IMG/VR virus record: IMGVR_UViG_3300044960_000113
Span: 32,001 to 96,000 of that record
Reading direction: 5' to 3' (one strand)
DNA from: a virus
Length of the DNA stretch: 64,000 bases
Part shown: positions 30,571-57,264 of the stretch, piece by piece
How positions within the stretch are numbered: position 1 is the first letter of the stretch
Layout of the letters: every line of letters starts with the position of its first letter
Notes under the pieces: generated by a model
What the model was told of the DNA's origin: nothing
The model's input: the letters and a program-made list of their open reading frames with translations, nothing else
The model's database searches: none
Position numbers and translations under genes: made by a program

Positions 30571-30610
30571 AATTAAACCTTTATTTTTTTAAGAGAATTA
30601 TATTACAAAA

Positions 30611-32612: not shown

Positions 32613-33338
32613 TTAATTCATAAACATACCACCATTAACATGGATAGTAGTTCCTGTTATATATCCCGAATTTTCACTTGCTAAAAATAAAGCAGCATTT
32701 GCGACATCTTCGGGTTGGCCTATTCGTTGAATTGGAAGTTTTTTTATGTCTTCTTCATTATTTGGTAAATTTTTAGTCATGTCTGTTTCTATTAATCCTG
32801 GAGCTATACAATTAACTGTGATATTATACCGCCCTAATTCGCTTGCCAATCCATGTGTTAAACCAATTAATCCAGCCTTTGATGCCATATAATTAGAATG
32901 ACCAACTTGACTTCTAAAAGCAGATACAGATGATATATTAATTATTCTTCCATATTTTTGTTTCATCATTTCTATAGCAACAAACTTTGTTAACTTAAAA
33001 ATGCTTTTTAAATTAGTATTAATGACAGCATCCCAATCATCATCAGACATTCTAAATAATATTTTATCTCTAGTTATTCCTGCATTATTAATTAATACAG
33101 AAATTGGTGATTTTATACTATTTATGACTTCTTTATATGTATCATATTTTGTAACATCTAATGTAATACCATATCCACCATAATCTTTTAAAAATTTAGA
33201 TATATTGTTTGCTCCTTCTTCTGTTGTTGATGTCCCATAAACCGTATAATTATTTTTAGCAAAGAGAATAGCGATTGCCTTACCAATACCACGTGAAGCT
33301 CCTGTTATTAATACTGTCTTTTTTGAAATACTATCCAT
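32613..33338 (-). CDS. fabG: 3-oxoacyl-ACP reductase (SDR family)
   Basis: TGASRGIG, NNAGITRD, ISSV, YMASK, NCIAPGLIETDM, GTTIHVNGGMFM; colinear with proteobacterial FabG. Confidence 0.88.
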   Translation of the reverse strand: MDSISKKTVLITGASRGIGKAIAILFAKNNYTVYGTSTTEEGANNISKFLKDYGGYGITLDVTKYDTYKEVINSIKSPISVLINNAGITRDKILFRMSDDDWDAVINTNLKSIFKLTKFVAIEMMKQKYGRIINISSVSAFRSQVGHSNYMASKAGLIGLTHGLASELGRYNITVNCIAPGLIETDMTKNLPNNEEDIKKLPIQRIGQPEDVANAALFLASENSGYITGTTIHVNGGMFMN

Positions 33339-41710: not shown

Positions 41711-42742
41711 TTATATTTCTTTTAAAATTTCGTTAAGTGGTTTCATTTGAGATAGCAATTTAGGATTTGGTTTACCACCAATATATCCACCAGTATTTAT
41801 CCATGTATTAGTTTTGATAGGACCAGATTCTAAATAGTCTTTTTGTTTGATTGTTAGTAAATCGTTTCCATATTGTACGACTAATAATGCATTATCTCCC
41901 CATTTTTTGTTTGCACTTAATCGTTCACCACACCACACTAATAATTTTCCATTTACCTCTATAAATTTTTTACCTTTTATAATTGGATTAAATGGTTTAA
42001 TTATGTTAATTAAATCATCATTTGTAAAAGAGATAGTTTTTTCAACCTTAACTTTTTCAACCTTAACTTTTTCAACCTTAAGTTTTGGAAGTTTGGGCGG
42101 TTTTTCAAGAACTTCTGTAATTTCTACAGTATCTGTTATTTTTCTATTAAAGGTTTTTTCAACTACAGATTTATCACCTATTTCAGGAGTATCAGTCTTA
42201 GGCCATTCTCCAAGTTCTTTAACTGGTAATAATGGAAGATTTGATGTTGGTTGTTCAGCTCTACTAAAACTCATATCATACTCTAATGCTGAATAACAAA
42301 CATGGTTAATATGATGCAGTACTTGGTTTTTTTCTAGTCCTAGTTTATCGGCATATGGATTATAGTTGTTTAATGCTAAACCTTGTGGATGTGCTTCTGA
42401 AATTTTAAACCATTTCTCTATTTCTTCTTCACCACTCCAAAATTTTGGATTAGGCAGTCCATCTACTAGATAACCAAGTCGATGCTGAAGTACCCAATGA
42501 TTATCATCAATCAGTTCAATAGAGAATAACATATTATCAAGGATATGTTTCTCATCATGACCGGCTTGGAGTAATCTAGCTTTGATCTCAACAAGGAAAT
42601 TGCCATCACCTGCGGCAGGTTCTAGCCATGTTAGATTAGGATTGAACCAGATTTCAGGTGGAAGCTTGTCCAGCATCTCATGAATTAAAGATGCTGGAGT
42701 GAAGACTTCACCAGATTGTTTAATGCGAGATCTAGATTTCAA
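41711..42742 (-). CDS. DNA adenine methyltransferase-like protein (SAM-binding half, no NPPY)
   Basis: GEVFTP, LEPAAGDGNFL (motif I), SIEL; no motif IV seen; 15-bp repeat x3 at 42038-42081. Confidence 0.7.
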   Translation of the reverse strand: MKSRSRIKQSGEVFTPASLIHEMLDKLPPEIWFNPNLTWLEPAAGDGNFLVEIKARLLQAGHDEKHILDNMLFSIELIDDNHWVLQHRLGYLVDGLPNPKFWSGEEEIEKWFKISEAHPQGLALNNYNPYADKLGLEKNQVLHHINHVCYSALEYDMSFSRAEQPTSNLPLLPVKELGEWPKTDTPEIGDKSVVEKTFNRKITDTVEITEVLEKPPKLPKLKVEKVKVEKVKVEKTISFTNDDLINIIKPFNPIIKGKKFIEVNGKLLVWCGERLSANKKWGDNALLVVQYGNDLLTIKQKDYLESGPIKTNTWINTGGYIGGKPNPKLLSQMKPLNEILKEI

Positions 42743-45700
42743 TCTTTTATAGTACTTTCTATTAAATCAATTTCTTCTTGTGTTAAATTAAAATATTCAT
42801 ATAATTCTTGATCTGTCCATGATTTAGAAATATCAACATATGGAATATGATAACAGAAAAAATCTGTAGCAAAACCCCCTGATCTATTATTAACATTTAA
42901 AAATTTAATTAATTTAGAATTTAAATAATTTATTAAATTATTTCCCTCTTTTTCATTTTTAACTTCTATAGCATGAGAATGCCAACATGTTCCGCGTGTT
43001 CCTTCATCATAAATGGGATTAAATTCACCACAATTTGAAAATAATACTTTAGTTAAAGTTAAATCTTTAGGTTCTTTTTCAGCCCATGATAATTGTTGGG
43101 CATTAGTGTTAAATATTGGATATTTAAATTTGTCATTTTTTATTTTTGATGCATAATAAATTTTACTTTGAGAAATTTTAAAATATTTTTTATTTTCTAA
43201 TGTTTTATTTTGAATACTAAAATATTCATCTTTAATAATATTATTGTATATAGATGGAATATTTTTATTAATGTTAACATGTCTTTTAGTATTATTAATA
43301 ATAAATTCAGTATTTTTATAATTATTATTATTTTCTAACAACCACCAACATATATCAACGCCAACATTAAAAATATCTTTAGATAAAATATTAACTGATT
43401 TAAGATTTTTTGTTAAAAATAATTTTTTTGTTTTTTCACATTTTATCCATGTTGTTGGTGTTACTAAACATAAAGTTCCATCTTGTTTAAGATATGGAAG
43501 AAGTTTGTGAATAAATTTTTTCCATAAAGAATGTGTTTTATTTCCACCACTTTGATTGCCTTGATATGGAGGATTCCCAATAATAATATCAAATTTCATA
43601 TCTTTCAAATTGTCCCATTTAATAACATTAAACCCAAGTCTTTCGAGGTGGTCAATAAAAAAATTAAAATATTCTAAACATACAATTTCCGCATTAGGAA
43701 ATTCCCGTTTTAACACTATTGGTAATGCACCATTTAATGCATTTACTACACCAATGTTAATTTTACCTTTTGTATATTTATTCTTCGGAATTGCTTTAAC
43801 AATGTCTTCAGCTAAATCAAAACTCATATATACTAAACCTAATTTTTGTTTGTTTGTCGTGTTTTCAAAAATTTCTTCATATAAAATTTTTAATGATGAT
43901 AAACTTGGTTCTAATTTACCATCTTCAGGTTGTAATAGATAAGAATACGCTTCTTTTCGAACGTTTAAATATTCTGTCAGTATCGATTCAAATTTTTTAT
44001 TTTTCTTAATTTCTGTTATAACAACGTCCATAACCTCTTCTGAAAACATTTCTTTAATAGCGTTATTACTTAAAACTTTAATGACATCAAAATTATTAGT
44101 AGTAAATGATACCCATTGAGCTTCTTTCATAATCGCTTGAATAAGCTCTTCAATTTGTTCAATTCTATTAGTTTCTTGTTTATTATTTTTATTTTTTAAT
44201 AAATTGGCTAGATATATGTTTTTTACTTTCGATCCGTTTTTATTAGTTAAAGATATATTTTTAAACTTAGTTTTAAATTTAAAATTATTAATATCAATAT
44301 TTTTCCATGTATTTTTTAAATCGAATTTTGAAATGCATTCATATAGGTTATTAGATGATAATTTATTTTTTATTGAAGATTTATAATAATCTTGAACTGA
44401 AGATAATATTTCTTCAGTTGTATATGTTTTATTATTGCCATTAATATCATATTCCGTAAGTGGAATACAATCTAACATTCCGACTGTAGAACAAGATTTA
44501 TCTAATTCTGATGTTTTTTTGGACATCAGTCCCATAACAATCATAAGATCGTTGCCAGGCACCAATGAATAAAGTTTTACTTCATCTTTTCCTGGATATA
44601 GACGAATCAGTCTACCCAAAAGTTGTTCAAATCCACTAATGTCGGAAATTTTATCCATTAGCACGATATGTCCTAATGGAGGAATATCAGTTCCTACTAT
44701 AAATTTCCCGCATGTCAAGATAATAACTTGTTTATACTCTTTTAAAAGAGTTTCAACATATTCATTGATTGTTATGTTTCGTTTTTTAGCATTTTTTTCT
44801 ATTGCGTAACTATCAATAAAATGTACGCCTTTTACGTTTTCATTTAATAATTTAGCTAAAGCTGGTATATATTCACCAGCACTATCACCATTTTGACCTT
44901 GTGGTAAAACCCACATGCCACACTTTTTAGAAACTGTACTTAGTTGTGGATCATTGATAATGCTTAATGGGTTTTTCTTTTTACTCAAAGAACTTGTATA
45001 AAGTCTATTTGGAAGTTCTATTATTTCATATTGTAAAACAAAATTTAAGTTTTCTCTCGCAAATAATTTTCTAGGATCAAATCCTTCTTCTGAAGAATAA
45101 ATACTGGCGATTCTATCACTTATTGAACTAAATGGTGTATTAAATACTTCTATCCTAATTTTTGGGAGTTTAGTGTGTTCGCGATATTTTAAACCCCAAA
45201 GAAGAGATCTTGACACAATTTCATCATTATTATAATAATGATAAACTTTATATGGTGTGGCCGTTAAATCGAGTATTTTTTTTGGTTTTATTTCACTAAG
45301 TACCTTTTTAGTAAAAGGCGCTTCATATTGAGAATGCCTTTCATCTATAATCCATAGATCAATATTATTAACGAGAAATTTATATTTGCTTCGTAGTGTA
45401 ATTATTTCATTTTGAATTTCAGAATTTTCTGAATATCTAACATCTTGAACAGTTAAGACAATAAAAATTAATTCTCCTGCTAGTTTTCTTTTAATAAGCT
45501 CTTTTACATTATATTTTTTAAATTCTTTTGAGTCAATATATGTTATTTTGCGGTTTCGATTATAACCAAAGTGGTAATTTTCGATATTTTCTTCAAAACT
45601 TTTTTTAGTATCAGAAATAGGAGTAGTAACTAATACAAAACCACCTTCTTTGATGTGACGTGCTGCCACTTCTATAGCAATCATTGTTTTTCCTCTGCCA

Positions 45701-46260
45701 GTATACGCAGAAAATAAACAGCGATGTTTATTATTTAGGTACACATTAAGAATATCTGATATATCTTTTTCCTGCATCCATCGCCACTGTGGATTAATTT
45801 TAGTACAATAGTCTTTAGTTAAACCTAACATATGTTTAAAAATATTAATGAGATCGGGTAAATCTCTATCCTTATTAAATTTTAAAAGTGCTTCACCGTT
45901 AGTATTTTCTTCCTGATATTTCGTATAGTTTGCACTAAAAGAAATTAAACCTTTTTTATGTCTTTTATTAATTTCTTTTCGAAGATCATTATCATAATTT
46001 TTCTTTTTATCAGAAACATCAAAAACAATTATAGCATTAGCTACTAAATCTTCACTTAATGAAGATTTACTACCTTTATATCTCAACTCAAATGCTTTAC
46101 TGGGAGTAACTCCAGAATAAGATTCGGCAGTAAATTCGCCAAGTTTATTATTACTAGTAATATATATACAACCTTGCCCAGGAACAAGGCAACCATTATT
46201 TAATGGGGTTTTTGATAAATGAAATATTTCAGCTTTAGAACCATCAATTTTTACACTCAT
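42739..46260 (-). CDS. SF2 helicase / Eco57I-type adenine methyltransferase fusion (restriction-modification-like)
   Basis: AYTGRGKT, IDERH, LTATP, QLLGRLIR; C-terminal DIIIGNPPY and TRD-like tail. Confidence 0.8.
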   Translation of the reverse strand: MSVKIDGSKAEIFHLSKTPLNNGCLVPGQGCIYITSNNKLGEFTAESYSGVTPSKAFELRYKGSKSSLSEDLVANAIIVFDVSDKKKNYDNDLRKEINKRHKKGLISFSANYTKYQEENTNGEALLKFNKDRDLPDLINIFKHMLGLTKDYCTKINPQWRWMQEKDISDILNVYLNNKHRCLFSAYTGRGKTMIAIEVAARHIKEGGFVLVTTPISDTKKSFEENIENYHFGYNRNRKITYIDSKEFKKYNVKELIKRKLAGELIFIVLTVQDVRYSENSEIQNEIITLRSKYKFLVNNIDLWIIDERHSQYEAPFTKKVLSEIKPKKILDLTATPYKVYHYYNNDEIVSRSLLWGLKYREHTKLPKIRIEVFNTPFSSISDRIASIYSSEEGFDPRKLFARENLNFVLQYEIIELPNRLYTSSLSKKKNPLSIINDPQLSTVSKKCGMWVLPQGQNGDSAGEYIPALAKLLNENVKGVHFIDSYAIEKNAKKRNITINEYVETLLKEYKQVIILTCGKFIVGTDIPPLGHIVLMDKISDISGFEQLLGRLIRLYPGKDEVKLYSLVPGNDLMIVMGLMSKKTSELDKSCSTVGMLDCIPLTEYDINGNNKTYTTEEILSSVQDYYKSSIKNKLSSNNLYECISKFDLKNTWKNIDINNFKFKTKFKNISLTNKNGSKVKNIYLANLLKNKNNKQETNRIEQIEELIQAIMKEAQWVSFTTNNFDVIKVLSNNAIKEMFSEEVMDVVITEIKKNKKFESILTEYLNVRKEAYSYLLQPEDGKLEPSLSSLKILYEEIFENTTNKQKLGLVYMSFDLAEDIVKAIPKNKYTKGKINIGVVNALNGALPIVLKREFPNAEIVCLEYFNFFIDHLERLGFNVIKWDNLKDMKFDIIIGNPPYQGNQSGGNKTHSLWKKFIHKLLPYLKQDGTLCLVTPTTWIKCEKTKKLFLTKNLKSVNILSKDIFNVGVDICWWLLENNNNYKNTEFIINNTKRHVNINKNIPSIYNNIIKDEYFSIQNKTLENKKYFKISQSKIYYASKIKNDKFKYPIFNTNAQQLSWAEKEPKDLTLTKVLFSNCGEFNPIYDEGTRGTCWHSHAIEVKNEKEGNNLINYLNSKLIKFLNVNNRSGGFATDFFCYHIPYVDISKSWTDQELYEYFNLTQEEIDLIESTIKD

Positions 46261-46293
46261 TTTCTACTTCTCCATAATTAATTATTAAATGAT

Positions 46294-46322
46294 ATTATAC
46301 TATACTTTTATTAAAATGTATA
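46294..46322 (-). promoter_or_regulatory. Early sigma70-type promoter
   Basis: TATACA-N17-TATAAT upstream of the helicase-methylase. Confidence 0.6.
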
Positions 46323-46390
46323 TATTTTTCTAATAGATGATTAAATTATTGATTTATATAGATATTATCTAAGTTATTGATTTATATAGA

Positions 46391-46435
46391 TTAATGAAAT
46401 CAATAACTTGTAACCCACTGAGATTTAACTCTATT
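46391..46435. repeat. 45-bp perfect direct repeat, right copy
   Basis: Identical to 41622-41666. Confidence 0.97.
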
Positions 46436-46981
46436 ATTTAATAGGTTCTCAAATGTTTTGTCGTTAATCTCATAATTAAACACTTTAAGAACTTGTAAAA
46501 AATTTCTATAATTAAATCCATCATAAGAGTCGACCTGTACAATTCTATCAATGTCTGCCTAGCTGAAGAAATTAGTGTTATTTAAACTATCATCAATTGC
46601 GACCCATTCAGTCATTTCTAGATGGTCATCTAACCACAATTTAATTTCATGATATCGTTGTGATGAAAAATTTACAGGTGTTGTTCAATCTTCATGGATG
46701 TTATATTTTCCGATATTTAATCCATTTAACTTAAAAAAATTAATCATCTCATCTATATTATAATGTTTCGCCTATGATGTCGACAATACGAATTTAGGTT
46801 TAATTTTTTCTATAATATAATTAAACATAGCCACAGCACAAGGGTCAAAAAATTTATAATGACCTTGATGCATTGGATCAGATTTACATCTTAAAGCTGA
46901 TCTATTCCCAGGTAAAAATTTAGCCCTACCTGAAATAAGTGGACCATCAATATCTAAAAAGATTATTTTAGTACTTTCCAT
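46400..46981 (-). pseudogene. HAD-family (Swiss-Army-knife RNA-repair type) phosphatase interrupted by three in-frame stops
   Basis: IFLDIDGPL...FVLSTS*...IHED*...WVAIDD...FFS*...VDSYDGF; stops TAG 46772-74, TGA 46685-87, TAG 46559-61, no frameshift; final TGA 46400-02. Confidence 0.75.
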
Positions 46982-47303
46982 TTTTTAATATTTCTAATGC
47001 TTTAGAACATATTAAGTCATGTCCATATTTTTTATTATGAAAATAAGATAATGGTATTATTATGGATCTTTCAAATGATATAAATTTTCTAACAGATAGG
47101 TATAAAATTAATTTATTAAATTTTTTATCATATTTTTTACTTAAAGTGTAAATTTTACCATGATAATTTTTATTATCATCATATTTAATTTCATCAATAA
47201 CACCATATTTCATTCCAATCCATGAGCGTCTTCTAACAGGATATAATAAAATATGTCCTGGATGAATAAAATTTCCAAACATATCACGTGGCGTATTTGT
47301 CAT
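46968..47303 (-). CDS. Hypothetical protein
   Basis: ORF track. Confidence 0.6.
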   Translation of the reverse strand: MTNTPRDMFGNFIHPGHILLYPVRRRSWIGMKYGVIDEIKYDDNKNYHGKIYTLSKKYDKKFNKLILYLSVRKFISFERSIIIPLSYFHNKKYGHDLICSKALEILKNGKY

Positions 47304-47304
47304 T

Positions 47305-47556
47305 TTATAATTCCTTCAATGAAATTATATTTGATATTTTAAATGAACGCCATTCTTTTTTGTCTAAATCGTATACTGATAAAATCTCTAAATTTTCTTT
47401 CTTTTTTCTTTTATTTTCTTCATTAGAGTTATTTTTTGGTAATAAATCTGGTTTAAGAGTACAACGCATTTTTCGAATATCACCATTAATTTTTTTAAAT
47501 TCTATTTCACATTCTTTTTCTAACAATGTTTGTTTGACTATACATCTAGTGTACAT
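47305..47556 (-). CDS. WYL_2/DUF2693-like SH3 beta-barrel protein
   Basis: IEFKKINGDIRKMRCTL...VYDLDKKEWRSF. Confidence 0.75.
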   Translation of the reverse strand: MYTRCIVKQTLLEKECEIEFKKINGDIRKMRCTLKPDLLPKNNSNEENKRKKKENLEILSVYDLDKKEWRSFKISNIISLKEL

Positions 47557-47560
47557 AATT

Positions 47561-48169
47561 TTATCCTTTCATTTTAAAAATAGAATTTTTTATCATAGAC
47601 ATTGCCATATCTATATCTGTTCCAGGAACAATCAGATCATATTCATGTTCTTGGATCCATTTTATTTCTTCAGTAAATACAGATTTTAATCGATTAATTA
47701 TTTGACAAAAAACTTTATTTTTATCATCATTTTTATTTAATTCAGATATAAACCTTTCAATCAATCTGTTCATACGTATACTTTTTGGTGTATATACAAA
47801 AATTTTTAACATTTTTAATTCATTATTTTTACAATATTGTTTATATAAAGTAACTCCATTAGGTTCAACAATTATTGCACCAGGTTTATCATAACTAACT
47901 TTATTCAAAATCTCATCATTTGTTGTTCCATAATATGTTCCATTATAATTAACAACTTCAACAAAATTGTTATTATTCATTTGTGACTTAAATTGTTCTG
48001 TTGTTAAAAAGTAATAGTCTTTGCCTTCAATTTCACCAACTCTAGGTTGTCTAGTTGTATATGAAATTATTTTATTGACAACACCAAATTTTACTAATGA
48101 ATCTAGTAAATATGATTTACCAGCAGCTGACTCACCAGTTATTGTTATAAAAATCAAATTATTTTTCAT
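47561..48169 (-). CDS. gmk: Guanylate kinase-like protein
   Basis: GESAAGKS, SYTTRQPRVGEIEGKDYYF, NGTYYGT. Confidence 0.85.
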   Translation of the reverse strand: MKNNLIFITITGESAAGKSYLLDSLVKFGVVNKIISYTTRQPRVGEIEGKDYYFLTTEQFKSQMNNNNFVEVVNYNGTYYGTTNDEILNKVSYDKPGAIIVEPNGVTLYKQYCKNNELKMLKIFVYTPKSIRMNRLIERFISELNKNDDKNKVFCQIINRLKSVFTEEIKWIQEHEYDLIVPGTDIDMAMSMIKNSIFKMKG

Positions 48170-48941
48170 TTATTATTTCCTCAATAATTTTAATTTCTTC
48201 TTGTGTGTTATAACTTAATTGTGGATAATCTGTTACTATTGCACGTGCTGGAAAACCTATATTATAAAAATAATGAATAATATATAAAAATGTCATCTCT
48301 CCAGAATCTGTTATATATCGTCCATTTTTATAATATGCTGCATTTAATACATCTAATGAATTTTCTAAACATGTTTTACAACATAGAAATATACATTGGT
48401 CATGAAAACCACTCAAATGTTTTTCACCACGTTTAGAAAAATCAACACTTATACAATTCATATCATTATCAGTTAAAAATGTTACATATGGATTATCTTC
48501 TTTAACAACTGGCACTAACATAGGTTTAATATCATAAAGTTTATCAAATGAAATACATTCTTCAAAAATATAATTATTTGAAATATATGCATCACCCCAC
48601 AATATAAAAAATTTTTCAGTTAATTCTTCTTTTAAATTTTTAATTTCTTTTATTGCTTCCATCACTGCATGTCCATCACCTTTTCCAGAATCAATAGCAA
48701 TTACACGTATTTCACTATTATATTTTGGATTACAACCAATATAATTTCCAACAAATAAATCGAATTTATCAACGTTTTTCTTATTTGAAACAACATAAAT
48801 ACGTCTAAAAATACCATTAATTTTATTTAATGTATTTTCTAAATTTGGAGTTCCATTTATATTAATAAGTGCTTTAGGTATGGAAATATTACCCATTCTG
48901 GTTCCATTGCCTGCAGCAATTATAAGTAAATCATAATCCAT
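48159..48941 (-). CDS. Sugar-phosphate nucleotidyltransferase (NTP_transferase family)
   Basis: IIAAGNGTRMG...PKAL, GDGHAV, ILWGD. Confidence 0.82.
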   Translation of the reverse strand: MDYDLLIIAAGNGTRMGNISIPKALININGTPNLENTLNKINGIFRRIYVVSNKKNVDKFDLFVGNYIGCNPKYNSEIRVIAIDSGKGDGHAVMEAIKEIKNLKEELTEKFFILWGDAYISNNYIFEECISFDKLYDIKPMLVPVVKEDNPYVTFLTDNDMNCISVDFSKRGEKHLSGFHDQCIFLCCKTCLENSLDVLNAAYYKNGRYITDSGEMTFLYIIHYFYNIGFPARAIVTDYPQLSYNTQEEIKIIEEIINEK

Positions 48942-48942
48942 A

Positions 48943-50826
48943 TTAATTATTTTTATCTAATGTTAATAATAAAGTTTTTAGAAAAATTAGTGTTTCTCGT
49001 GGATTTTTTACTTGTAAAAAATCAACATTTTTACTATGTGCTATAGCATAATCATTTCCGCCAGACATACCTTCATCACCCACATAAACAATTTTTGTAT
49101 TATCATCCATATCTTTAATAATATCATTTAATGCTTTTAATTTAGCATCACTACCTTTAGAAATATCTATAGTTGTTCTACCTGTTGGTCTTACATAATA
49201 ATTTGAACCAAGTTTCATCTGAAGTAATATAGAAAGTGGCTTTCTATATTCATTTTCTATAGGTTTAATTGATATTGTTGCATTATTTCTATTTTGAATT
49301 TTATTAATTTCAAATCCTAATTCTTCTAATATTGTCAAAATATCATTAATTTCTTTTTCTGAAAATGTTGATGGTGTGTGTACACAATTAATATATTTTT
49401 TATTAACTTCATCATATTTTATTGGGATATACTCTAGTAAATATTTGTTTATTCCACCATCAGCATATAATGTAATATTGTTAAATAACACACTATAATT
49501 TTGACTTAATACTTTATTAAAAAATTGTGATGATATAATAGATTTATCAATTGTGTTTGAAGATATTTTTTTAAAAGTTAAATTTATAGATTTTTCAGAA
49601 TTTCCCGTTATAATGTTTATATTTTTATTAAATTTTGTCAATGTCCATAATAATAATTTATTTGTTTGTGATTCTATATAATATTCATTATTCCGTCCTA
49701 CTAATGTATCATCGTAATCAAATGCATATGTATGTGAATTTAAATATTTTTTATAATATGAATGCATAATTGCCCATGCTAAACTTTCTGGGTGATGTTT
49801 TTTATCGTTTTTATTTTCAGATAATGTATATACAGAATAATTAATAGATGATTTATCATCTTTTGATATATTATTGACTGACATTTCATCTGATGCATTT
49901 TTATTGAAAATAAAATGGACATTTTTAATATTAATATATTCTGAAATGATTTTTATCATTTCATATGAATTAACACCACTCATATCTTTATCTTGTATAT
50001 TATTAATAATGCAAAATATTTTATTTGATTTGAATGCATTTGATGATTCAAATGTTTTTTCAAAATCTACACTAATATATGTTGGAATTAATGAAGACCA
50101 TTGTGTTCCAGACGATAGAACAATAATGTCAGCATTCTGAATTGCATTTTTTGCACGTTGAGTTAAATGAGGTAATCTTATAATACCACCAGTATCAACA
50201 AGTCTAATATGATCTATTTTATCTTTTGGATTGTTCCAATTTACTATATCACCTTCATCTAATATGATATGACCGGATTTTGTAATTGCTTGAAGAAATA
50301 AACTTTCATCAGAACTTGGAATTACAGCATCTTCTTCAATTTTCAATAATTTTGCCATTTCTATTCCAGCTGCTTCCATAGAATAATTGTGTTTGGCAGC
50401 CAATCCAGCATAAATTATATTAGATATTGAAAAATCTGAATATGTTATTTGACGTGATTTTGGATATAAAAAATATGTTTTAATTGCGTCAAAAGCAACA
50501 TCTTTGAATTCATCATTATTTTCTAATTTATTTAATTCATGAATACAGTATTGTTCTGCATCTTCAGCTGAACAATCAAATCTAATATCCATGAATTTAT
50601 AGAGTTGCGTTTCACCATATAATAATTTATGACGTAATGTTTGATTTTTACGTAAATCAGATGGGCCTAAAATTTTACCATCCATAACTTGTCTAACTGC
50701 ACCTGTTGATTTACCATTATCATATAAGTTTGTAATTACATTAATTTCTAAATTATTAAATAAATTATTTAAACCTGTTTGAAGTGCTATAGAACCTGTT
50801 CCACCAGAAAAAATAACTAATTTCAT
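48943..50826 (-). CDS. CofD/UPF0052 (YvcK-like) domain fused to a HAD-IIB phosphatase/phosphomutase
   Basis: N-term FSGGTG, YDNGKSTG, GPSDLRK, ADIIVLSSGTQWSSLIP; C-term FDYDDTL, IITG, GRTTIDI, YVGDE...GGND. Confidence 0.82.
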   Translation of the reverse strand: MKLVIFSGGTGSIALQTGLNNLFNNLEINVITNLYDNGKSTGAVRQVMDGKILGPSDLRKNQTLRHKLLYGETQLYKFMDIRFDCSAEDAEQYCIHELNKLENNDEFKDVAFDAIKTYFLYPKSRQITYSDFSISNIIYAGLAAKHNYSMEAAGIEMAKLLKIEEDAVIPSSDESLFLQAITKSGHIILDEGDIVNWNNPKDKIDHIRLVDTGGIIRLPHLTQRAKNAIQNADIIVLSSGTQWSSLIPTYISVDFEKTFESSNAFKSNKIFCIINNIQDKDMSGVNSYEMIKIISEYINIKNVHFIFNKNASDEMSVNNISKDDKSSINYSVYTLSENKNDKKHHPESLAWAIMHSYYKKYLNSHTYAFDYDDTLVGRNNEYYIESQTNKLLLWTLTKFNKNINIITGNSEKSINLTFKKISSNTIDKSIISSQFFNKVLSQNYSVLFNNITLYADGGINKYLLEYIPIKYDEVNKKYINCVHTPSTFSEKEINDILTILEELGFEINKIQNRNNATISIKPIENEYRKPLSILLQMKLGSNYYVRPTGRTTIDISKGSDAKLKALNDIIKDMDDNTKIVYVGDEGMSGGNDYAIAHSKNVDFLQVKNPRETLIFLKTLLLTLDKNN

Positions 50827-50841
50827 ATAATTAATTCCTTT

Positions 50842-51975
50842 TTATATATTTTTAATTAATAAATTGATAAAATCAGTACAATATTTTTTAGCATCAAAAT
50901 TAATTGCTTTAAATTGCGCATCAATAATATCTTTCCTTGCACTATTATCATTTATAAGAAGTCTTAATTTATTTTCAGCATCTTCTCTAGAGCTCACATA
51001 TAAAAAATCTATTAAATCTTTATCGTTTTTATAAAATCTTTTTTCTTTATCTAGATCTGAATCGATAAATGTTATACATTGTGCAACTACTGATTCAGAT
51101 GCTCTTTGTGCCATATCAGATATTTCTTCATACCATGGATCTCCTATAACAATATGAGACATAGCACTATTCATCTTTTCTAACATTTTATCATATTTGA
51201 CGACACCTGTAAAATTTGGTGTTCTTAAATTACTTATCAAATTAGGATTAAAATCTTTAAGTTCTATTTTTCCAAACATTTCTACAATAATATCTTCAGG
51301 CCATCCAAAATAATATTTTATCATTTTTTTAATTCTTTTACCACCTCTCATTGTTCCACCATATGAAAGATGAACTGTTGGTGCTTCATTAAATGGTTTT
51401 GGTGTATTTAAAAATGGAAATAATTCAAATGGATAATGTTTTATTCCGCGAATATTAGAAACTTCATATTTACCAAATGAATTTTTAACCTTTTCTGTAT
51501 TAAATGGTTGACAAATATAAAAAATATCATCACGCGTTATTTCTATATCTTTTTTATTATATTTTTTACCCCATTCTTTTTTTTCTACAGAATGCCAAAT
51601 TTGTTTTAATGTTAATTCTGGATCACATAAAATATAAAATATTGGACCTTTAAAATTGTTTATTATATGATAATTTGCTATTTGATATTCATCTTCAGTA
51701 CCACCAAAAAAATTAACATTCCCGTTTAATATACACAATGCATCTAATGATAAATTATTAATTTTATCTTTAAATTCTAAAGTATCAACAATTAAAACGT
51801 TTTCAATCGGTTTTTCTGGCTCATTTTTAATGCGTTTAGATAATGCAATAACTTGAGCACCGCCATTGATCATCATTTTTATTAATGATATAGTTTCTCC
51901 AGTACCACCACTTGTTCCTTGATTATCAAAAGAAATACGTGCACCTAATTTAATTACACCTAATTTTATTGACAT
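50842..51975 (-). CDS. bgt: T4 beta-glucosyltransferase-like DNA glycosyltransferase
   Basis: Colinear with T4 BGT: GET (E22), NFFGG, YILCD (D100), YGGTMRGGKR (R191/R195), FTG, IGD, RASE (R269/E272). Confidence 0.85.
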   Translation of the reverse strand: MSIKLGVIKLGARISFDNQGTSGGTGETISLIKMMINGGAQVIALSKRIKNEPEKPIENVLIVDTLEFKDKINNLSLDALCILNGNVNFFGGTEDEYQIANYHIINNFKGPIFYILCDPELTLKQIWHSVEKKEWGKKYNKKDIEITRDDIFYICQPFNTEKVKNSFGKYEVSNIRGIKHYPFELFPFLNTPKPFNEAPTVHLSYGGTMRGGKRIKKMIKYYFGWPEDIIVEMFGKIELKDFNPNLISNLRTPNFTGVVKYDKMLEKMNSAMSHIVIGDPWYEEISDMAQRASESVVAQCITFIDSDLDKEKRFYKNDKDLIDFLYVSSREDAENKLRLLINDNSARKDIIDAQFKAINFDAKKYCTDFINLLIKNI

Positions 51976-52493
51976 AATGCCTCTTTCAAAATATCTTTTG
52001 GATCTTTATAATATCCATTATTGTTAATATCAATAATTTTTTTATTTTTAATTTTTGATCTGTTAAATGCAAATTTAAATAACTCTTGTTCTTCTGTTTT
52101 TCTTTTAAAATTAAAACTTTTACCATCATCTTTTAGAAATGAAAAATCTGATGTTGTTAAAAGAATAAGTTTTATATTATCTATTTTATAAATAGAATAA
52201 TCTTGTTCCATATCAAATACATAATTTCCAGAATATCCACGATATAATGGTGAATAGACACATTCACCTAAATGAAATCTATTAAAAATAATTGGAATAT
52301 TATGTTTTTCTGATAACAATTTAAATCCATATTCAAATGATGTTTTTTGATATTTAAATAAATCATTATCATAAATAGCAATTTTTTGTGGTTTCGTATA
52401 ATGTATTACAAAATGAAAACCCAAATGTTGAATTATTTGATTTATTAATGTATCTTTTCCTAATCTGTCTATTCCTTCTATTATGAATTTCAT
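51966..52493 (-). CDS. Thymidylate-kinase-like dNMP kinase
   Basis: IIEGIDRLGKDT P-loop, FNRFHLGECVYSPLYRGY. Confidence 0.78.
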   Translation of the reverse strand: MKFIIEGIDRLGKDTLINQIIQHLGFHFVIHYTKPQKIAIYDNDLFKYQKTSFEYGFKLLSEKHNIPIIFNRFHLGECVYSPLYRGYSGNYVFDMEQDYSIYKIDNIKLILLTTSDFSFLKDDGKSFNFKRKTEEQELFKFAFNRSKIKNKKIIDINNNGYYKDPKDILKEALCQ

Positions 52494-52503
52494 ATTTTTA
52501 AAA

Positions 52504-52797
52504 TTATTCCCATATTATTATATTATTTGAATTTGCCAATTCAGCTAAAATTTCACCATGACATAATTTAGGTGAACACCAACAACCAAGCTTTTTATTT
52601 TTTAATTCTGATATTTGACTTAATAATTCTTTATTTGATAATATCCAATTTTTATATTTAGCCACAACTTCTTCACGAGTTCCATCTTTTCCTATTTCAA
52701 ATGGGTTACCCCATTTAGATGGTCTACCAACATAAACATCATATTCTGATTTTTTACAATGAACAACATATTTTTTATATGGTCTTTTATTCATCAT
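52504..52797 (-). CDS. DUF4326 domain protein
   Basis: VYVGRPSKWGNPF, LGCWCSPKLCHG. Confidence 0.85.
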   Translation of the reverse strand: MMNKRPYKKYVVHCKKSEYDVYVGRPSKWGNPFEIGKDGTREEVVAKYKNWILSNKELLSQISELKNKKLGCWCSPKLCHGEILAELANSNNIIIWE

Positions 52798-54511
52798 TAT
52801 TTAAGAAACTTTTTTGCATTGTTAAAAATTCTTTTTGCCAGATATTGTTTTTAGAACGCCATAATCTAGATATATTACTATCTATCATATACGTAATTGC
52901 ATAATCTTCTTTAGATCTTACACTTCTACCAGAACCTTGAACTAATCTTTTTATTGTCATTAATTCATATATTTCTGGATAATTTTCCATAATATATTTA
53001 ATTCGTTTATCTCCTAATGATGCAAATGGTGCCTTAACAAATATTTGAAATCTAGAATGATCATCTGGTAAATCTATTCCTTCAAACATAGATGGAGATA
53101 ATAATATTGATGGACTATCATAATTTTTAAACATTTCTAAAATTTTTTCTAATTTTTCTCCTCTAATATGTTCAAATACTTTAACATTATTTTTTCTTAA
53201 AAATTTAGATAATCTTTCAGATACAACAAAACTTGGGCACAATACTATCCCTTTATCAGAACTATGAAATTTAACTATTTCTAAAACAGTTTTGTCTATT
53301 TTTGATAAAACTGTTTCATCTTTCATTGAATTATAATTTAATGATTGTGGTTTGTAAAAAACAATTTTTTTATTTTCTTTTGGAAATGTTGGTTCAACAT
53401 GTATAAATTTGGTTTTATTTTTATTTAAATTTAATGTTTTTATTAAAAAATGATCTGATATTGTTGCAGACATAAAAATATTAAAATCTGAAAATCTCAA
53501 TGTTTTTTCAAACATATCACCAACAAAAATTGGTTTAATAGAAAATTCATTTTCACCATTTTCTTTAATTAATTGTGGGACATGTTCATAACCATATTTT
53601 AATAAATCATCAATCTTACAACCTAATCCAAAATATTTTTTATGTAATCTTGAAAATTGTGTATATTTGTTAATATTTTTTATATTCATTTCCATCTCAG
53701 ATTTACACTGTTCTGCAATTAATTTATATGCATTATATAATGGTAACATATATGCCATATATGTTTTTTCATTTAAAAGGCCATCTTTTAAATCTGTTGT
53801 TATACGTTTAATTGTGTTATAAACATCTGTTTTACCAAGTTTAAGATGATTAGTAATTTCTTCGGTTATTTTATTAAAATGTTTTTCAGAAATATAAATC
53901 GCATTATGTTCTGTAAATATATCATTGATTGTATGAGCCTCATCCCACACAGTTACACATCTTTTAGATAAAACATCTGCATACATTCTATCAACAAAAT
54001 AATAACTATAATTTGTGATTAAATGTTTAACAGTATTTCGTTTATTTTTTACATCTAAATATTCACATTTATAGCATTTTTGTACAGCATTTGCCATTAC
54101 GTCATCTATAGTATTATTTTGCAGTACTCCAAACATACATTCTTCTGCTGTATAAAAATCATCAGAATTTTTTGATACAGAATTTAATGCGTCACATGGA
54201 TATTGACTTGCACCTTTCAGTTGTGCAAAATTATGATTTCCAGAAAATGTTTTATAATATTGTTTAGCTAAAGCATTATTATGTACTAGAATTATAGATG
54301 ATAAATCACTTTTTTGAATTTTTCCGATACATTCAGCAGTAACAGCACCAATTAATGATTTACCTGTTCCAGTTGGTGCACATAAAATAATATCGTTATA
54401 TCTTTCATCAAGAATGGATATTAAGATATTATTAATAGTTTCAACTTGATTATCTCGTGGAAAAAAATTTAATGATGCATATGCATCATTGATTAATTGT
54501 TCATATTTCAT
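52787..54511 (-). CDS. DinG/YoaA-like SF2 helicase
   Basis: APTGTGKS, DEAH, SAT, EGID, QGSGRSVR, D..R. Confidence 0.88.
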   Translation of the reverse strand: MKYEQLINDAYASLNFFPRDNQVETINNILISILDERYNDIILCAPTGTGKSLIGAVTAECIGKIQKSDLSSIILVHNNALAKQYYKTFSGNHNFAQLKGASQYPCDALNSVSKNSDDFYTAEECMFGVLQNNTIDDVMANAVQKCYKCEYLDVKNKRNTVKHLITNYSYYFVDRMYADVLSKRCVTVWDEAHTINDIFTEHNAIYISEKHFNKITEEITNHLKLGKTDVYNTIKRITTDLKDGLLNEKTYMAYMLPLYNAYKLIAEQCKSEMEMNIKNINKYTQFSRLHKKYFGLGCKIDDLLKYGYEHVPQLIKENGENEFSIKPIFVGDMFEKTLRFSDFNIFMSATISDHFLIKTLNLNKNKTKFIHVEPTFPKENKKIVFYKPQSLNYNSMKDETVLSKIDKTVLEIVKFHSSDKGIVLCPSFVVSERLSKFLRKNNVKVFEHIRGEKLEKILEMFKNYDSPSILLSPSMFEGIDLPDDHSRFQIFVKAPFASLGDKRIKYIMENYPEIYELMTIKRLVQGSGRSVRSKEDYAITYMIDSNISRLWRSKNNIWQKEFLTMQKSFLNNDE

Positions 54512-55173
54512 TTTATTAAATTAAAATGTCTTTCGTAAACGTGAAGTGATCCAACTGTCCAATATATATTACCCATTTTTACCAATAATTTAGAATTATT
54601 TAAATCATTTACCAATTTTTCTAAAACATATTTTTGCCATCCATAATCATTTTTATATCCAAATACGACATCTTGTGATCTCATTCTAACATGTGCATGA
54701 AGTTTATTGTCTCTAATGAAATATTGGACAGCATCAGTACACATAAAATCTGACATACCATTATAATTATAATCTATCCACATTGATGGACGAGTGTAAA
54801 TCATCTCAGCTCGTCTCGTTGATTCACCATTTTTAATGAGTTCATTTTTTACATTTTCATATTGATTATAGTTTTCTTTAGAAAAAATACACCAACCATA
54901 ATTTGAGTTTATTTTTCCTTCTTTTGAAGCAACCTGTTGCCAAACTTGTGGAGGACCACCTGGAATATCTTTAATATATAGAGATTGAGATTCGTACCAG
55001 CTTATTTCTCTTTTTAGATAATCTTCGTTAACTGTTCCAAAAATAGCTGGTTCATCTGCTATAAAACTTTCTGCTAATAATTCTACTGTTTTTACACCAG
55101 TTTTGTCTATTACAAAATCTTTATTTTTTAATTTTTCAATAAATTTTTTTCTTATATCATATACTTTTTGCAT
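54508..55173 (-). CDS. gp42: dCMP hydroxymethylase (T4 gp42-like)
   Basis: KDFVIDKTGVKTVE, WQQVAS..G.INSNYGW, DFMCT (Cys148 equivalent), RSQDVVFGYKND (Asp179 equivalent), GSLHVY. Confidence 0.93.
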   Translation of the reverse strand: MQKVYDIRKKFIEKLKNKDFVIDKTGVKTVELLAESFIADEPAIFGTVNEDYLKREISWYESQSLYIKDIPGGPPQVWQQVASKEGKINSNYGWCIFSKENYNQYENVKNELIKNGESTRRAEMIYTRPSMWIDYNYNGMSDFMCTDAVQYFIRDNKLHAHVRMRSQDVVFGYKNDYGWQKYVLEKLVNDLNNSKLLVKMGNIYWTVGSLHVYERHFNLIK

Positions 55174-55187
55174 TAAAAATATCCTTA

Positions 55188-55646
55188 TTACAAAGTATTT
55201 ACATTAATTAAATCCACTGTTAAATTTATATCTTTATTAATGAATGTTAAATTAGGAACAACATCATCAACTAAAACACAAGTTGTATTTTTAAAATTAA
55301 ATTGGCAAAAATCTAAAAATAAACGATGTTTACCCCACACACACACACATGATAATTCTTGAAGTTCCCATTTGCAACCAGTAAATTTAACAATATCTTT
55401 TAAAATTTCTTCTTGTGTTGGAATATTACCAATATTTACATCAAGTGCACGCTGTATTGGGTCTTTAAGACTAGATATAAATTCTTGTCTGTCTTTTTCA
55501 TTCCAGATAGCAAATGAAAAAATAGATATATTTTCAACAAAATTATTTTTTAATAATTTCTTGATCTTAGAAACATTGCACAATCTTTGATCATGCCAAC
55601 TATTAATAATAGTTTCTTCAAGATCTAAAAACCAATGAGAGTCCAT
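55188..55646 (-). CDS. HAD-like hypothetical protein
   Basis: WFLDLEETII and VLVDD motifs. Confidence 0.55.
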   Translation of the reverse strand: MDSHWFLDLEETIINSWHDQRLCNVSKIKKLLKNNFVENISIFSFAIWNEKDRQEFISSLKDPIQRALDVNIGNIPTQEEILKDIVKFTGCKWELQELSCVCVWGKHRLFLDFCQFNFKNTTCVLVDDVVPNLTFINKDINLTVDLINVNTL

Positions 55647-55677
55647 AATGAGACCATTTTTTATTTTAAGATAATAT

Positions 55678-55706
55678 ATTATCTCATATTTTATAAAAAA
55701 AGTAAA
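55678..55706 (-). promoter_or_regulatory. Early sigma70-type promoter heading the DNA-modification operon
   Basis: TTTACT-N17-GATAAT with extended TG. Confidence 0.6.
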
Positions 55707-55709
55707 TAC

Positions 55710-56642
55710 TTATTTTTTATGAAAAGATGAAATTTCAGGTGGTAATTTTATATTTGTTCCTTTGAATGAATCTGCTACATCTTTAAATATTTTATCTTGA
55801 ATATTTTTAGGAAATGTTTTTTTGATTAATTCTATAACTTTTTCAGCAGATGTTACATCTTTTTCCGTATAACCTTTACCAAATAAATGTTCTACTGCTT
55901 TATTTGGATCATTTATTAAATCTAATTTATCACTAAATTTAATATCTTTATATTTAGGATCAATTTTAATTAATTCTTGTTTTAATTCATTTGGTGTTAC
56001 TTCTATCATATTTTTTAATCTAGCTGTTCCTTTTTTATTCATTGGAGCTATTTTAAATACTCGTCTAATTCCACCGGTTGGATTCCATGCTCTGCTTGCT
56101 CTAGCTATAACATTTCCATTATCATCAGTTACAACTAAATCTTCATCTTTAATTTGTTTATATCGAGATGCTGCCATTAATAATTGACCACGGATTGCTC
56201 CTTTATATTTTGATTCTTTTCCTTCATCACTATAAAAATGGAATCTTGCCCAATCTACATCCGGAACAAACATTAAATCAACTTGAACTTTTTTATTATT
56301 TGATACAGGGACAGCATATGAACCAACTCTTATTCCAGGTTGTAATTGACCTTCATTATTAAATGCTTTCATCATTTTTTTATGAACTTCTTGCATAAAT
56401 TCTGGTGATTTCATATCTATAGCAATATCTATATCACCTGAATCTTTTTTATAACCTAATAAAGTTAATTCTGTTGTTCCTAAAACTTGTTTTTTTAGAT
56501 TATCTAAATCTATTTTTAATATATCTGAAACCTTTTTAAGTGCAATTTCAATATCTGATTTTGAAGCACGAGAAGTACCCCATTTTTTAGTAACTTTACC
56601 ATTTTCAAATAATATTTTTGATAAAAAAGATTTAAAGTTCAT
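55710..56642 (-). CDS. Nucleotidyltransferase-fold protein with MNFKSFLSKILFE leader
   Basis: VLGTT...SGDIDIAID, VQVDLM. Confidence 0.65.
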   Translation of the reverse strand: MNFKSFLSKILFENGKVTKKWGTSRASKSDIEIALKKVSDILKIDLDNLKKQVLGTTELTLLGYKKDSGDIDIAIDMKSPEFMQEVHKKMMKAFNNEGQLQPGIRVGSYAVPVSNNKKVQVDLMFVPDVDWARFHFYSDEGKESKYKGAIRGQLLMAASRYKQIKDEDLVVTDDNGNVIARASRAWNPTGGIRRVFKIAPMNKKGTARLKNMIEVTPNELKQELIKIDPKYKDIKFSDKLDLINDPNKAVEHLFGKGYTEKDVTSAEKVIELIKKTFPKNIQDKIFKDVADSFKGTNIKLPPEISSFHKK

Positions 56643-56684
56643 TGTTATAAAAATAAATAAAATTATATTCTATTTATTAAATTA

Positions 56685-56692
56685 TATAAATA
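56685..56692 (+). promoter_or_regulatory. T4-type late promoter
   Basis: TATAAATA 41 nt upstream of the tail module; another at 58956-58963 before the 1008-aa fibre gene. Confidence 0.5.
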
Positions 56693-56733
56693 ATATATGT
56701 ATTAAACGATAATATCATTTTAGGAAAAAATAT

Positions 56734-57264
56734 ATGAGTACCGTTAATCAATCAAAAAGATATTTAGGAAATCGTTCAGTTTATTTTGGTCCAGATCTAC
56801 CTGAAACAGATTTAGAAGATGGATTTTTATTCTATAAAACTGGAACAAACGCTGGATTGTATATTTATAAAAATTCAACATGGGAATTAACTTCAGTTAC
56901 AAATATTACTAATCTTACTGGGACAATTAACGATCTTGCTGGAGTATTAAATATATCTAAAGGTGGAACTGGTGCAACTAATGCTTCAGCAGCTTTAACA
57001 AATTTGGGCGGTGTCACATTAGCACAAGTTCAAACAGAGATTCAAACCACAAATATAAATTCTCTTGCTGGAGTATTAAATATATCTAAAGGTGGAACTG
57101 GTGCAACTAATGCTTCAGCAGCTTTAACAAATTTGGGCGGTGTCACATTAGCACAAGTTCAAGCAGAGATTCAAACCGTAAATAGAAATTCTCAAGGAAA
57201 TAAAACAGTGTCAACATCAACACCTGTTGGTGGTTCTGATGGAGATATTTGGTATCAATATTAA
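56734..57264 (+). CDS. Tail fibre protein with a 43-aa internal duplication
   Basis: LNISKGGTGATNASAALTNLG twice; C-terminal GSDGDIWYQY. Confidence 0.75.
   Translation: MSTVNQSKRYLGNRSVYFGPDLPETDLEDGFLFYKTGTNAGLYIYKNSTWELTSVTNITNLTGTINDLAGVLNISKGGTGATNASAALTNLGGVTLAQVQTEIQTTNINSLAGVLNISKGGTGATNASAALTNLGGVTLAQVQAEIQTVNRNSQGNKTVSTSTPVGGSDGDIWYQY
56934..57177. repeat. Direct repeat, 115-bp copies with 129-bp period
   Basis: 56934-57048 vs 57063-57177, one mismatch seen. Confidence 0.9.

Follow-up and report, generated by a model that had tools for sequence, protein, structure and literature searches.

A phage gene module linking a YvcK/GlmR-like–HAD fusion protein and a nucleotidyltransferase to a BGT-like glycosyltransferase: a candidate sugar-donor supply for DNA glycosylation

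Here, we describe a conserved gene module in a 64,000-nucleotide stretch of viral DNA (positions 32,001 to 96,000 of the IMG/VR record IMGVR_UViG_3300044960_000113), which was analysed at its full length and is referred to as the window in the following. The core of the module consists of three neighbouring genes: bgt, which encodes a homolog of the DNA glycosyltransferase BGT of phage T4; a gene for a fusion protein that joins a CofD-family (UPF0052) domain of the YvcK/GlmR type to a HAD-IIB domain; and a gene for a predicted nucleoside triphosphate (NTP) transferase. In the reading that we favor with moderate confidence, and which draws on sequence comparisons and predicted structures, the fusion and the NTP transferase would provide a phage-encoded supply of nucleoside diphosphate (NDP)-hexose, in which a mutase step followed by a pyrophosphorylase step feeds the DNA glycosyltransferase.

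The fusion is rare among sequenced phages but its neighborhood is strongly conserved. In a tblastn search of 50,697 phage records, it was found in two, the cultured Ralstonia phage RsoM2USA and a 462-kb uncultured phage (LR756500), and the NTP transferase subfamily occurs in exactly these two carriers. In RsoM2USA, bgt (gene 2), the fusion (gene 1) and the NTP transferase (gene 486) follow one another across the record ends, with a thymidylate synthase (TS)-like gene nearby; in LR756500, the order is guanylate kinase (Gmk), a small open reading frame (ORF), the fusion, three small ORFs, the NTP transferase, a kinase, a TS-like gene and bgt. A pattern scan of IMG/VR yielded 37 loci at 28–42% identity, 28 of them non-redundant. 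Within this non-redundant set, the fusion lies beside an NTP transferase gene in 27 loci, a BGT-like gene in 25, a gene for a small deoxynucleoside monophosphate (dNMP) kinase in 17 and a gp42-like gene in 13; two further contigs have a gp42-like gene at another place, and a third carries a TS-family gene that is more distant (39% identity). The conserved core is thus formed by bgt, the fusion and the NTP transferase. At least 637 relatives are present in the protein collection at 90% clustering, many of them on contigs of 330–370 kb.

For the fusion, we used an alignment of 36 homologues and an AlphaFold model (mean pLDDT 92, pTM 0.90). Its N-terminal domain matches the Pfam family CofD (PF01933, residues 4–325, 4.8e-21, 75.6 bits against a cutoff of 30). 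By sequence and by model, it is of the YvcK/GlmR type and not of the CofD/FbiA type, because its best NCBIfam match is YvcK (TIGR01826, 8.7e-21), the CofD-family matches among PDB sequences are UPF0052 proteins without exception, and Foldseek aligns it to the UPF0052 structures 2hzb and 2o2z with target-normalized TM-scores (TMt) of 0.81–0.84, compared with 0.56 for FbiA (6uw1). The TIGR01826 score of 74.7 bits is far below the cutoff of 196, so that the sequence marks it as a distant relative of YvcK/GlmR rather than an orthologue. The motifs GGxGS, D36-N37-G-x-S-T-G and G-P-S-D57 are invariant in the 36 homologues, and the GGxG and D-[DN]-G-x-S-[ST]-G motifs align to 2ppv and 2hzb. D36 and D57 fall in YvcK motifs that, going by motif comparison, may correspond to those with the metal-binding Asp pair D45/D57 of FbiA. 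Since D38 and D39 are needed for the activity of GlmR (PMC13046274), the invariance of this Asp-containing motif suggests that the domain is catalytically competent. It is acidic in 36 of the 36 homologues (median pI 4.8), which is weak evidence in favor of a metabolic enzyme over a DNA-binding one. A fold search of BFVD with the fusion returned HAD proteins only, with no viral YvcK-like model among them. The bacterial YvcK/GlmR relatives bind UDP-sugars and reportedly form UDP-GlcNAc (PMC10128056; PMC13046274).

The C-terminal domain carries the HAD motifs I (D370-x-D372-x-T374), II (T/S-G-N409), III (K562) and IV (G-D584-E ... G-N-D592). Residues D370, D372, T374, N409, K562, D584, N591 and D592 are invariant in the 36 homologues; when more divergent members are aligned (19 sequences), seven of these stay invariant and D584 nearly so, with Asn in the 99%-complete, 352-kb genome L028. 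Searched against the PDB, a profile of this domain retrieves 17 phosphomannomutase (PMM)/alpha-phosphoglucomutase (alpha-PGM) sequences at 1.2e-17 to 2e-5, 15 of them at 1.3e-7 or better, and next after these the putative uncharacterized protein 3l7y (0.0019) and trehalose-6-phosphate phosphatase (0.009). Foldseek matches the domain to the Lactococcus alpha-PGM 4bnd and to PMMs, and 7o58 is among the matches of the fusion model. The form of motif IV that is found in eukaryotic-type PMM and in the Lactococcus enzyme, GD-x(3-4)-GGND, is retained, as are the equivalents of PMM2 residues R123, R141, S179 and D181 (R513, R528, T552 and D554). At the level of profiles and models, the domain hence specifically resembles PMM/alpha-PGM. 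We also considered a phosphatase of the trehalose-, sucrose- or mannosylglycerate-phosphate type that would act after a synthase, which is less likely given profile matches of 1.2e-17 to 2e-5 for PMM/alpha-PGM versus 0.009.

The predicted NTP transferase (alignment of 23 sequences; AlphaFold2 model with pLDDT 95) matches NTP_transf_3 (8e-10) and also IspD and NTP_transferase in Pfam. Over its whole length, Foldseek places the uridylyltransferase domain of GlmU first, with query-normalized TM-scores (TMq) of 0.80–0.82, followed by HddC, UDP-glucose pyrophosphorylases of the GalU type and RmlA, and GlmU is also the best match of the family profile in the PDB (1.6e-16). The signature AAGxGxRM...PK, G-x-G-H-A, WGD is conserved; R15, K23, G86, G88 and D117 do not vary, among them the Arg, Lys and Asp of catalysis, and the alignment includes GlmU K25 and D105 (PMC10128056). 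A nearly invariant residue, I83, occupies the position of the uracil/thymine-binding Gln (GlmU Q76, RmlA Q83); Gln76 of GlmU binds uracil (PMC10128056). From its sequence and model, we classify the enzyme as a nucleotidylyltransferase of the hexose-1-phosphate type (GlmU/RmlA/GalU/HddC-like). Assignments to CofC, MobA or IspD/TarI were rejected: IspD/TarI are among the sequence matches, yet the whole-length fold and the best profile are of the GlmU type. No CofC-family match was obtained in the Pfam, NCBIfam and PDB profile searches, and the scanned ORFs of the window included no F420 genes. A first-pass annotation of this DNA, made from the sequence alone, had placed Gmk, the NTP transferase and a CofD-family/HAD-IIB fusion in overlapping or abutting ORFs downstream of bgt. 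The ORFs lie exactly there, on the minus strand, family matches and motifs agree with the domain calls, and the neighborhood survey upholds the proposed link to DNA modification, as bgt and gp42-like genes accompany the fusion in other phages. The annotation's secondary suggestion, a HAD mutase that feeds the NTP transferase, also gains from these comparisons, with a PMM/alpha-PGM-like profile for the one and a hexose-1-phosphate type for the other.

The genes upstream of the fusion point to 5-hydroxymethylcytosine (hmC) as the acceptor of the sugar. In a phmmer search of PDB sequences, the gp42-type protein matches T4 deoxycytidylate hydroxymethylase (1b49) over residues 6–220 with an E-value of 1.1e-88. 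It retains the catalytic Cys (T4 Cys148) in a DFMCT motif and the cytosine-specifying Asp (T4 D179), with KNDYGW aligned to RNDYAW of T4, and is predicted to supply 5-hydroxymethyl-dCMP. At another place, the window also encodes a canonical thymidylate synthase (PF00303, 2.1e-106); RsoM2USA likewise carries two TS-family genes. The small kinase matches phrog_761 (9.6e-9) and, weakly, the Thymidylate_kin P-loop, and had no match among PDB sequences; its sequence would be compatible with a gp1-like role. The BGT-like protein matches PF09198 (3.5e-17, 63.1 bits against a cutoff of 27), phrog_7922 (3.5e-42) and T4 BGT itself (1bgt; 2.1e-25, 25% identity). It retains the equivalents of T4 residues D100, R191, R195, Y261, R269 and E272, with S189 replaced by Thr; we take Asp100 to be the catalytic residue of T4 BGT and Arg191, Arg195, Arg269 and Glu272 to bind UDP. 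The BGT-like copies of RsoM2USA and LR756500 are 44–47% identical to that of the window, versus 25% for T4 BGT, and by this measure the module-linked enzymes form a subfamily apart from the classical one. Because of the membership of these proteins in the gp42 and BGT families, the phage probably makes hmC-containing DNA and glycosylates the hmC.

The Gmk of the window is probably a real (d)GMP kinase. Its sequence matches PF00625 (2.7e-24) and yeast Guk1 (1gky; E-value 7.5e-18), with 99.6 bits for TIGR03263, below the cutoff of 160.45. The P-loop and the GMP-binding residues S34, R38, R41, Y50, E69 and Y78 of the yeast enzyme are aligned, and D100 is replaced by Glu. Gmk adjoins the module in 11 of the 28 non-redundant loci, in two different gene orders, and is absent from two complete module-carrying genomes, L028 and L004 (345 kb). 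It is an optional accessory and not part of the module core, and a role as an obligatory recycling step is ruled out by these two genomes.

The domains of the module also occur in other arrangements. On contig L041, they are split, in that a CofD-like gene (338 aa) and a HAD gene from the same family overlap but remain separate; also encoded on this contig are a TS-family protein, a T4-type glucosyltransferase, a dUTPase/DCD and a dCMP deaminase. A triple fusion of CofD, HAD and NTP transferase domains occurs in proteins of 791–794 aa (794 aa at L042:10001-12385 and L043:4039-6423), which share 31% identity with the window fusion (618 columns) and 33–34% with the window NTP transferase. The neighbors of the triple fusion are an asparagine synthase, a sulfotransferase, a dTDP-sugar isomerase/epimerase and glycosyltransferases of the families GT1, GT2, GT90 and GT92. 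None of the genes called within 10 kb belongs to DNA modification. These contigs are probably derived from a giant virus; a similar 773-aa cluster is labelled Nucleocytoviricota in the Atlas, which we regard as a lead only. On contig L021, in a context of T4-like replication genes, a TET-associated glycosyltransferase (PF20691, 8.9e-26; L021:7247-8218) lies upstream of the fusion and the NTP transferase, and no bgt was found on that contig. As the PF20691 enzyme thus stands in place of bgt, the acceptor-side glycosyltransferase is interchangeable. Finally, in L028 the NTP transferase precedes the fusion, and a C5-cytosine DNA methylase lies 3 kb away (features at L028:5768-6979 and L028:9306-11773); the genome gave no match to the window gp42-like protein and no T4-type glucosyltransferase, and Pfam scans of the flanks found no glycosyltransferase. 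A search for Tet_JBP in the L028, L021 and L004 genomes gave no match, but the control was silent as well, so that this search is uninformative. As a separate observation, several loci have an additional gene between bgt and the fusion, which encodes a SAM-dependent methyltransferase (Methyltransf_23/31/12; L004:8970-9992, L017:9192-10004 and L029:8781-9587); its cluster was found in five loci, and the enzyme may tailor the sugar or the donor.

Mutase and pyrophosphorylase constitute the textbook two-step route to NDP-hexoses, and it is such a route that we propose for the module. On the acceptor side, the gp42-type enzyme would make 5-hm-dCMP, the small kinase would help to raise it to the triphosphate for replication, and the BGT-like GT-B enzyme would glycosylate 5-hmC in the DNA. 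On the donor side, the PMM/alpha-PGM-like HAD domain would turn a hexose 6-phosphate into a hexose 1-phosphate, either as a mutase or as a phosphatase acting on a hexose bisphosphate, and the GlmU/RmlA-like nucleotidyltransferase would join the hexose 1-phosphate and an NTP to form the NDP-hexose. The YvcK/GlmR-like domain would add a third catalytic activity to this small-molecule route, either a phosphotransfer to prime or supply the mutase or else, as reported for GlmR, a second nucleotidyl transfer. Gmk would be an optional helper in guanine nucleotide supply. We infer the order of these steps, the sugar, the nucleotide, the use of the donor by the BGT-like enzyme and the role of the YvcK-like domain from the domain identities, the catalytic motifs, the conserved linkage and the split and fused forms. 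That the unit travels with different glycosyltransferases and acceptors is more in keeping with a diffusible donor than with an enzyme acting on DNA.

Several points weigh against the donor-supply reading. Its support comes from sequences, predicted structures and gene linkage. For the HAD domain, the single-sequence Pfam match to PMM is weak (residues 565–620, 16.8 bits against a cutoff of 22.4), and PMM2 N128 and R134 have no conserved counterpart, so that phosphatase instead of mutase chemistry is possible. A plain two-step route leaves the strongly conserved YvcK-like domain unexplained, and the uridylyltransferase action of GlmR in cells is disputed or called unclear (bioRxiv 10.64898/2026.06.23.733835). 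Furthermore, the host cell already gives T4 BGT its UDP-glucose, so that the need for a private route is something we infer. Finally, CofD-family chemistry and the strict pairing with an NTP transferase recall CofC/CofD, and the presence of Gmk in part of the loci would fit a release of GMP.

These last features are central to an improbable alternative, a cycle analogous to that of CofC and CofD. Here, the NTP transferase would make NDP-X, and the CofD-family domain would put phospho-X or a sugar 1-phosphate on hmC or glucosyl-hmC with release of a nucleoside monophosphate (NMP); the HAD domain would feed the NTP transferase or trim phosphate, Gmk would recycle GMP, and the DNA would end up with a hypermodification that bears phosphate. 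In the chemistry of this family, the beta-phosphate of NDP-X is attacked and NMP leaves; for CofD and FbiA in particular, the donor is GDP-linked, its phospho-moiety is transferred, GMP leaves, and two Asp residues hold the metal (PMC7253369). The N-terminal domain belongs to PF01933 as well, its invariant D36 and D57 sit in motifs that may match, and it is always paired, and sometimes fused, with the NTP transferase, as CofD is with CofC. Likewise, Gmk is adjacent in a fraction of the loci, in more than one gene order, and the Ile in place of the uracil-binding Gln of GlmU makes a non-uridine NTP possible. However, the domain is strongly acidic and of the YvcK type, both in its best NCBIfam match and in its fold, the NTP transferase is nearest to hexose-1-phosphate enzymes and lacks a CofC match, and Gmk is dispensable in complete genomes. 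In addition, the three domains also occur in a single polypeptide within a glycan cluster, and L028 carries the fusion and the NTP transferase without bgt or a gp42-like gene; given such non-DNA contexts, a DNA-specific acceptor cannot be general. The cycle that the first-pass annotation had put forward, with GDP-X as the donor, phosphotransfer by the CofD-family domain and recycling of GMP by Gmk, is weakened by the same observations.

We also consider it unlikely that the YvcK-like domain is a new type of sugar kinase in a salvage route, which would amount to the donor-supply reading with its first step specified. In this scenario, the domain would convert hexose to hexose 6-phosphate, or hexose 6-phosphate to the 1,6-bisphosphate, perhaps turning GDP into GMP, and the HAD mutase or phosphatase and activation by the NTP transferase would follow. 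PMM-type HADs bind hexose 1,6-bisphosphates, and fusion of the three domains in one protein of 794 aa alongside their separation in L041 is the pattern expected of consecutive steps. One of the best fold matches of the NTP transferase is HddC, which acts last in such a route, and Gmk would regenerate GDP. On the other hand, we know of no sugar kinase among CofD-family members, which counts against this route, and so does the absence of Gmk from complete genomes. The order of a kinase, a HAD phosphatase and a nucleotidyltransferase would be analogous to the heptose pathway and to the arabinose pathway of phages (PMC13326640). We deem it very unlikely that the module does not serve DNA at all, but reprograms the envelope of the host or its central sugar metabolism. 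It could, for example, raise or deplete UDP-GlcNAc or UDP-glucose in the manner of GlmR in Firmicutes, and the adjacency of bgt would then merely reflect a shared early operon for nucleotide metabolism. A role of YvcK/GlmR in UDP-GlcNAc homeostasis (PMC10128056; PMC13046274), the gene content of L028 and the triple fusion in a glycan cluster would be in line with such a function. It is nevertheless the least likely of the explanations because of the linkage to bgt: a BGT-like gene remains the immediate neighbor in most loci at 28–42% identity, this linkage has outlasted far more divergence than the order of the surrounding operon genes, L021 swaps bgt for another family of DNA glycosyltransferases, and the linked BGT subfamily is distinct from that of T4.

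Compared with known systems, the window shares with the hmC glucosylation of T4 a gp42-type hydroxymethylase, a small dNMP kinase and a BGT homolog with its catalytic residues. Unlike the window, T4 relies on host UDP-glucose and has no gene for a mutase, a pyrophosphorylase or a YvcK-like protein, and the BGT of the window belongs to the subfamily that travels with the module. Closer parallels are found in phages with donor routes of their own, namely the arabinosyl pathway of RB69, DLP3 and HY126, which involves a HAD enzyme and a nucleotidyltransferase (PMC13326640), and the UDP-xylose pyrophosphorylase route of phage Thanatos (PMC12838424). In these, as proposed for our module, the phage makes its own sugar 1-phosphate with the involvement of a HAD enzyme, and activation by a nucleotidyltransferase readies it for a DNA glycosyltransferase. 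Their components are an arabinose-5-phosphate isomerase, a kinase–nucleotidyltransferase fusion and a GmhB-like HAD phosphatase (PMC13326640; PMC12838424), whereas the window has a PMM/alpha-PGM-type HAD fused to a YvcK/CofD-family domain, which those papers do not mention.

The individual domains compare in a similar manner. With YvcK/GlmR of Firmicutes and Actinobacteria, the N-terminal domain shares the fold, the glycine loop, the D-N/D-G-x-S-S/T-G motif and a link to NDP-sugars, but it is only about 18–21% identical, fused to a HAD domain and encoded in a phage instead of a yvcJ-glmR-yvcL operon. Like CofC/CofD (FbiD/FbiA), the module pairs a GT-A-like nucleotidyltransferase with a PF01933 protein that has a conserved Asp pair in motifs that may match the metal-holding ones of FbiA (PMC7253369), but in structure it resembles FbiA far less than YvcK, and neither a CofC match nor a deazaflavin context was found in the scanned window ORFs. 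The NTP transferase, in turn, has the hexose-1-phosphate nucleotidylyltransferase fold of pyrophosphorylases of the ManC/GalU/GlmU type. In contrast to systems built from PMM and such enzymes, the module lacks the two PMM2 residues noted above, has an Ile for GlmU Gln76, and includes a fused or paired CofD-family domain.

The features of the window are listed in Table 1. The window is part of a 184-kb viral record with a CheckV completeness of 52%, which suggests a jumbo phage of around 350 kb; the window is AT-rich (G+C about 27%). A megablast search of positions 44000–56000 against the 50,697 phage records gave no match, indicating that a close sequenced relative is absent from these records. 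The minus-strand ORFs are tightly packed from the gp42-type gene through Gmk and WYL_2: a gap of 15 nucleotides (nt) separates the BGT-like gene from the start of the fusion, 1 nt lies between the stop codon of the fusion and the NTP transferase, and the NTP transferase and Gmk ORFs overlap by 11 nt. The module ORFs are real genes and not chance frames, since they are long, have family matches well over threshold and recur in the same order in dozens of distant viral contigs. A scan of positions 46000–57000 for promoters and terminators was uninformative, with 107 promoter-like sites versus 106 expected, and the operon structure is therefore deduced from gene packing only.

Table 1. Features of the window, with positions counted from its first nucleotide
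Feature	Positions	Strand	Size or remark
Homologue of T4 RNA ligase 1	13410-14519	-	
Canonical thymidylate synthase	25250-26158	-	
Thg1-like tRNA-His guanylyltransferase	28575-29261	-	
GyrA-like/GyrB-like type II topoisomerase subunits	29254-32521	-	
FabG-like short-chain dehydrogenase	32613-33338	-	adh_short_C2, 1.9e-59
Divergent radical SAM protein	33420-35099	+	559 aa
ResIII/DEAD helicase + Eco57I-like N6-adenine methyltransferase domains	42739-46260	-	1173 aa
WYL_2 small protein	47305-47556	-	83 aa; 2.8e-15
Guanylate kinase (Gmk)	47561-48169	-	202 aa
NTP transferase (predicted sugar-1-phosphate nucleotidylyltransferase)	48159-48941	-	260 aa
CofD-family + HAD-IIB fusion	48943-50826	-	627 aa
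Fusion, C-terminal HAD-IIB domain (PMM/alpha-PGM type)	48946-49743	-	residues ~362-627
Fusion, N-terminal YvcK/GlmR-like (CofD-family, UPF0052) domain	49792-50826	-	residues 1 to ~345
BGT-like GT-B DNA glycosyltransferase	50842-51975	-	377 aa
P-loop kinase, small dNMP kinase-like	51966-52493	-	175 aa
DUF4326 protein	52504-52797	-	97 aa; 4.2e-29
Helicase	52787-54511	-	574 aa
gp42-type dCMP hydroxymethylase (TS-family)	54508-55173	-	221 aa
gp38-like tail fibre adhesin	57249-58115	+	
DUF4376 protein	58133-58930	+	

Several neighboring genes deserve mention. The WYL_2 and DUF4326 genes stand in the gene string of the module, and their adjacency to it is not kept in other loci. Just downstream of the module operon lies the gene for the protein with helicase and N6-adenine methyltransferase domains; beyond the other end, the G+C content and GC skew shift where the opposite-strand genes for the gp38-like adhesin and the DUF4376 protein sit. 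Farther away, the gene for the Thg1-like guanylyltransferase adjoins those for the type II topoisomerase subunits, a pair that is found near the module in RsoM2USA too, the short-chain dehydrogenase gene lies beside that for the radical SAM protein, and the window also encodes a homologue of T4 RNA ligase 1.

In the library searched, we found no paper that links CofD/YvcK-family proteins (also under the name 'gluconeogenesis factor') or PMM-type HADs to phage DNA modification, and nothing relevant on 2-phospho-L-lactate transferase in viruses. The paper on RsoM2USA annotates only bgt and two thymidylate synthase genes and does not report the DNA chemistry. With no paper found, the module thus appears to be undescribed, although it is of a kind already known, that of phage donor-synthesis pathways for DNA glycosylation. 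As RsoM2USA is cultured, its chemistry is directly testable. The enzymes of the module could serve as tools for modified DNA. For the YvcK/GlmR family, whose biochemistry is disputed, the three-enzyme unit, in which the domain occurs fused, split or paired, offers a compact system of study. If the phosphotransfer reading were true, the module would make a phosphodiester-linked hypermodification of a kind undescribed for cytosine, and the YvcK branch would gain its first enzymatic role beyond cell-wall metabolism. For the phages themselves, the glycosylation of DNA decides whether it is cut by restriction enzymes, CRISPR nucleases and type IV systems. The conserved pairing of a private donor pathway with a BGT subfamily of its own, seen in RsoM2USA and in hundreds of large phages that are uncultured, suggests that their hmC carries a sugar other than the glucose of T4, and the module may free these phages from the UDP-glucose of their hosts.

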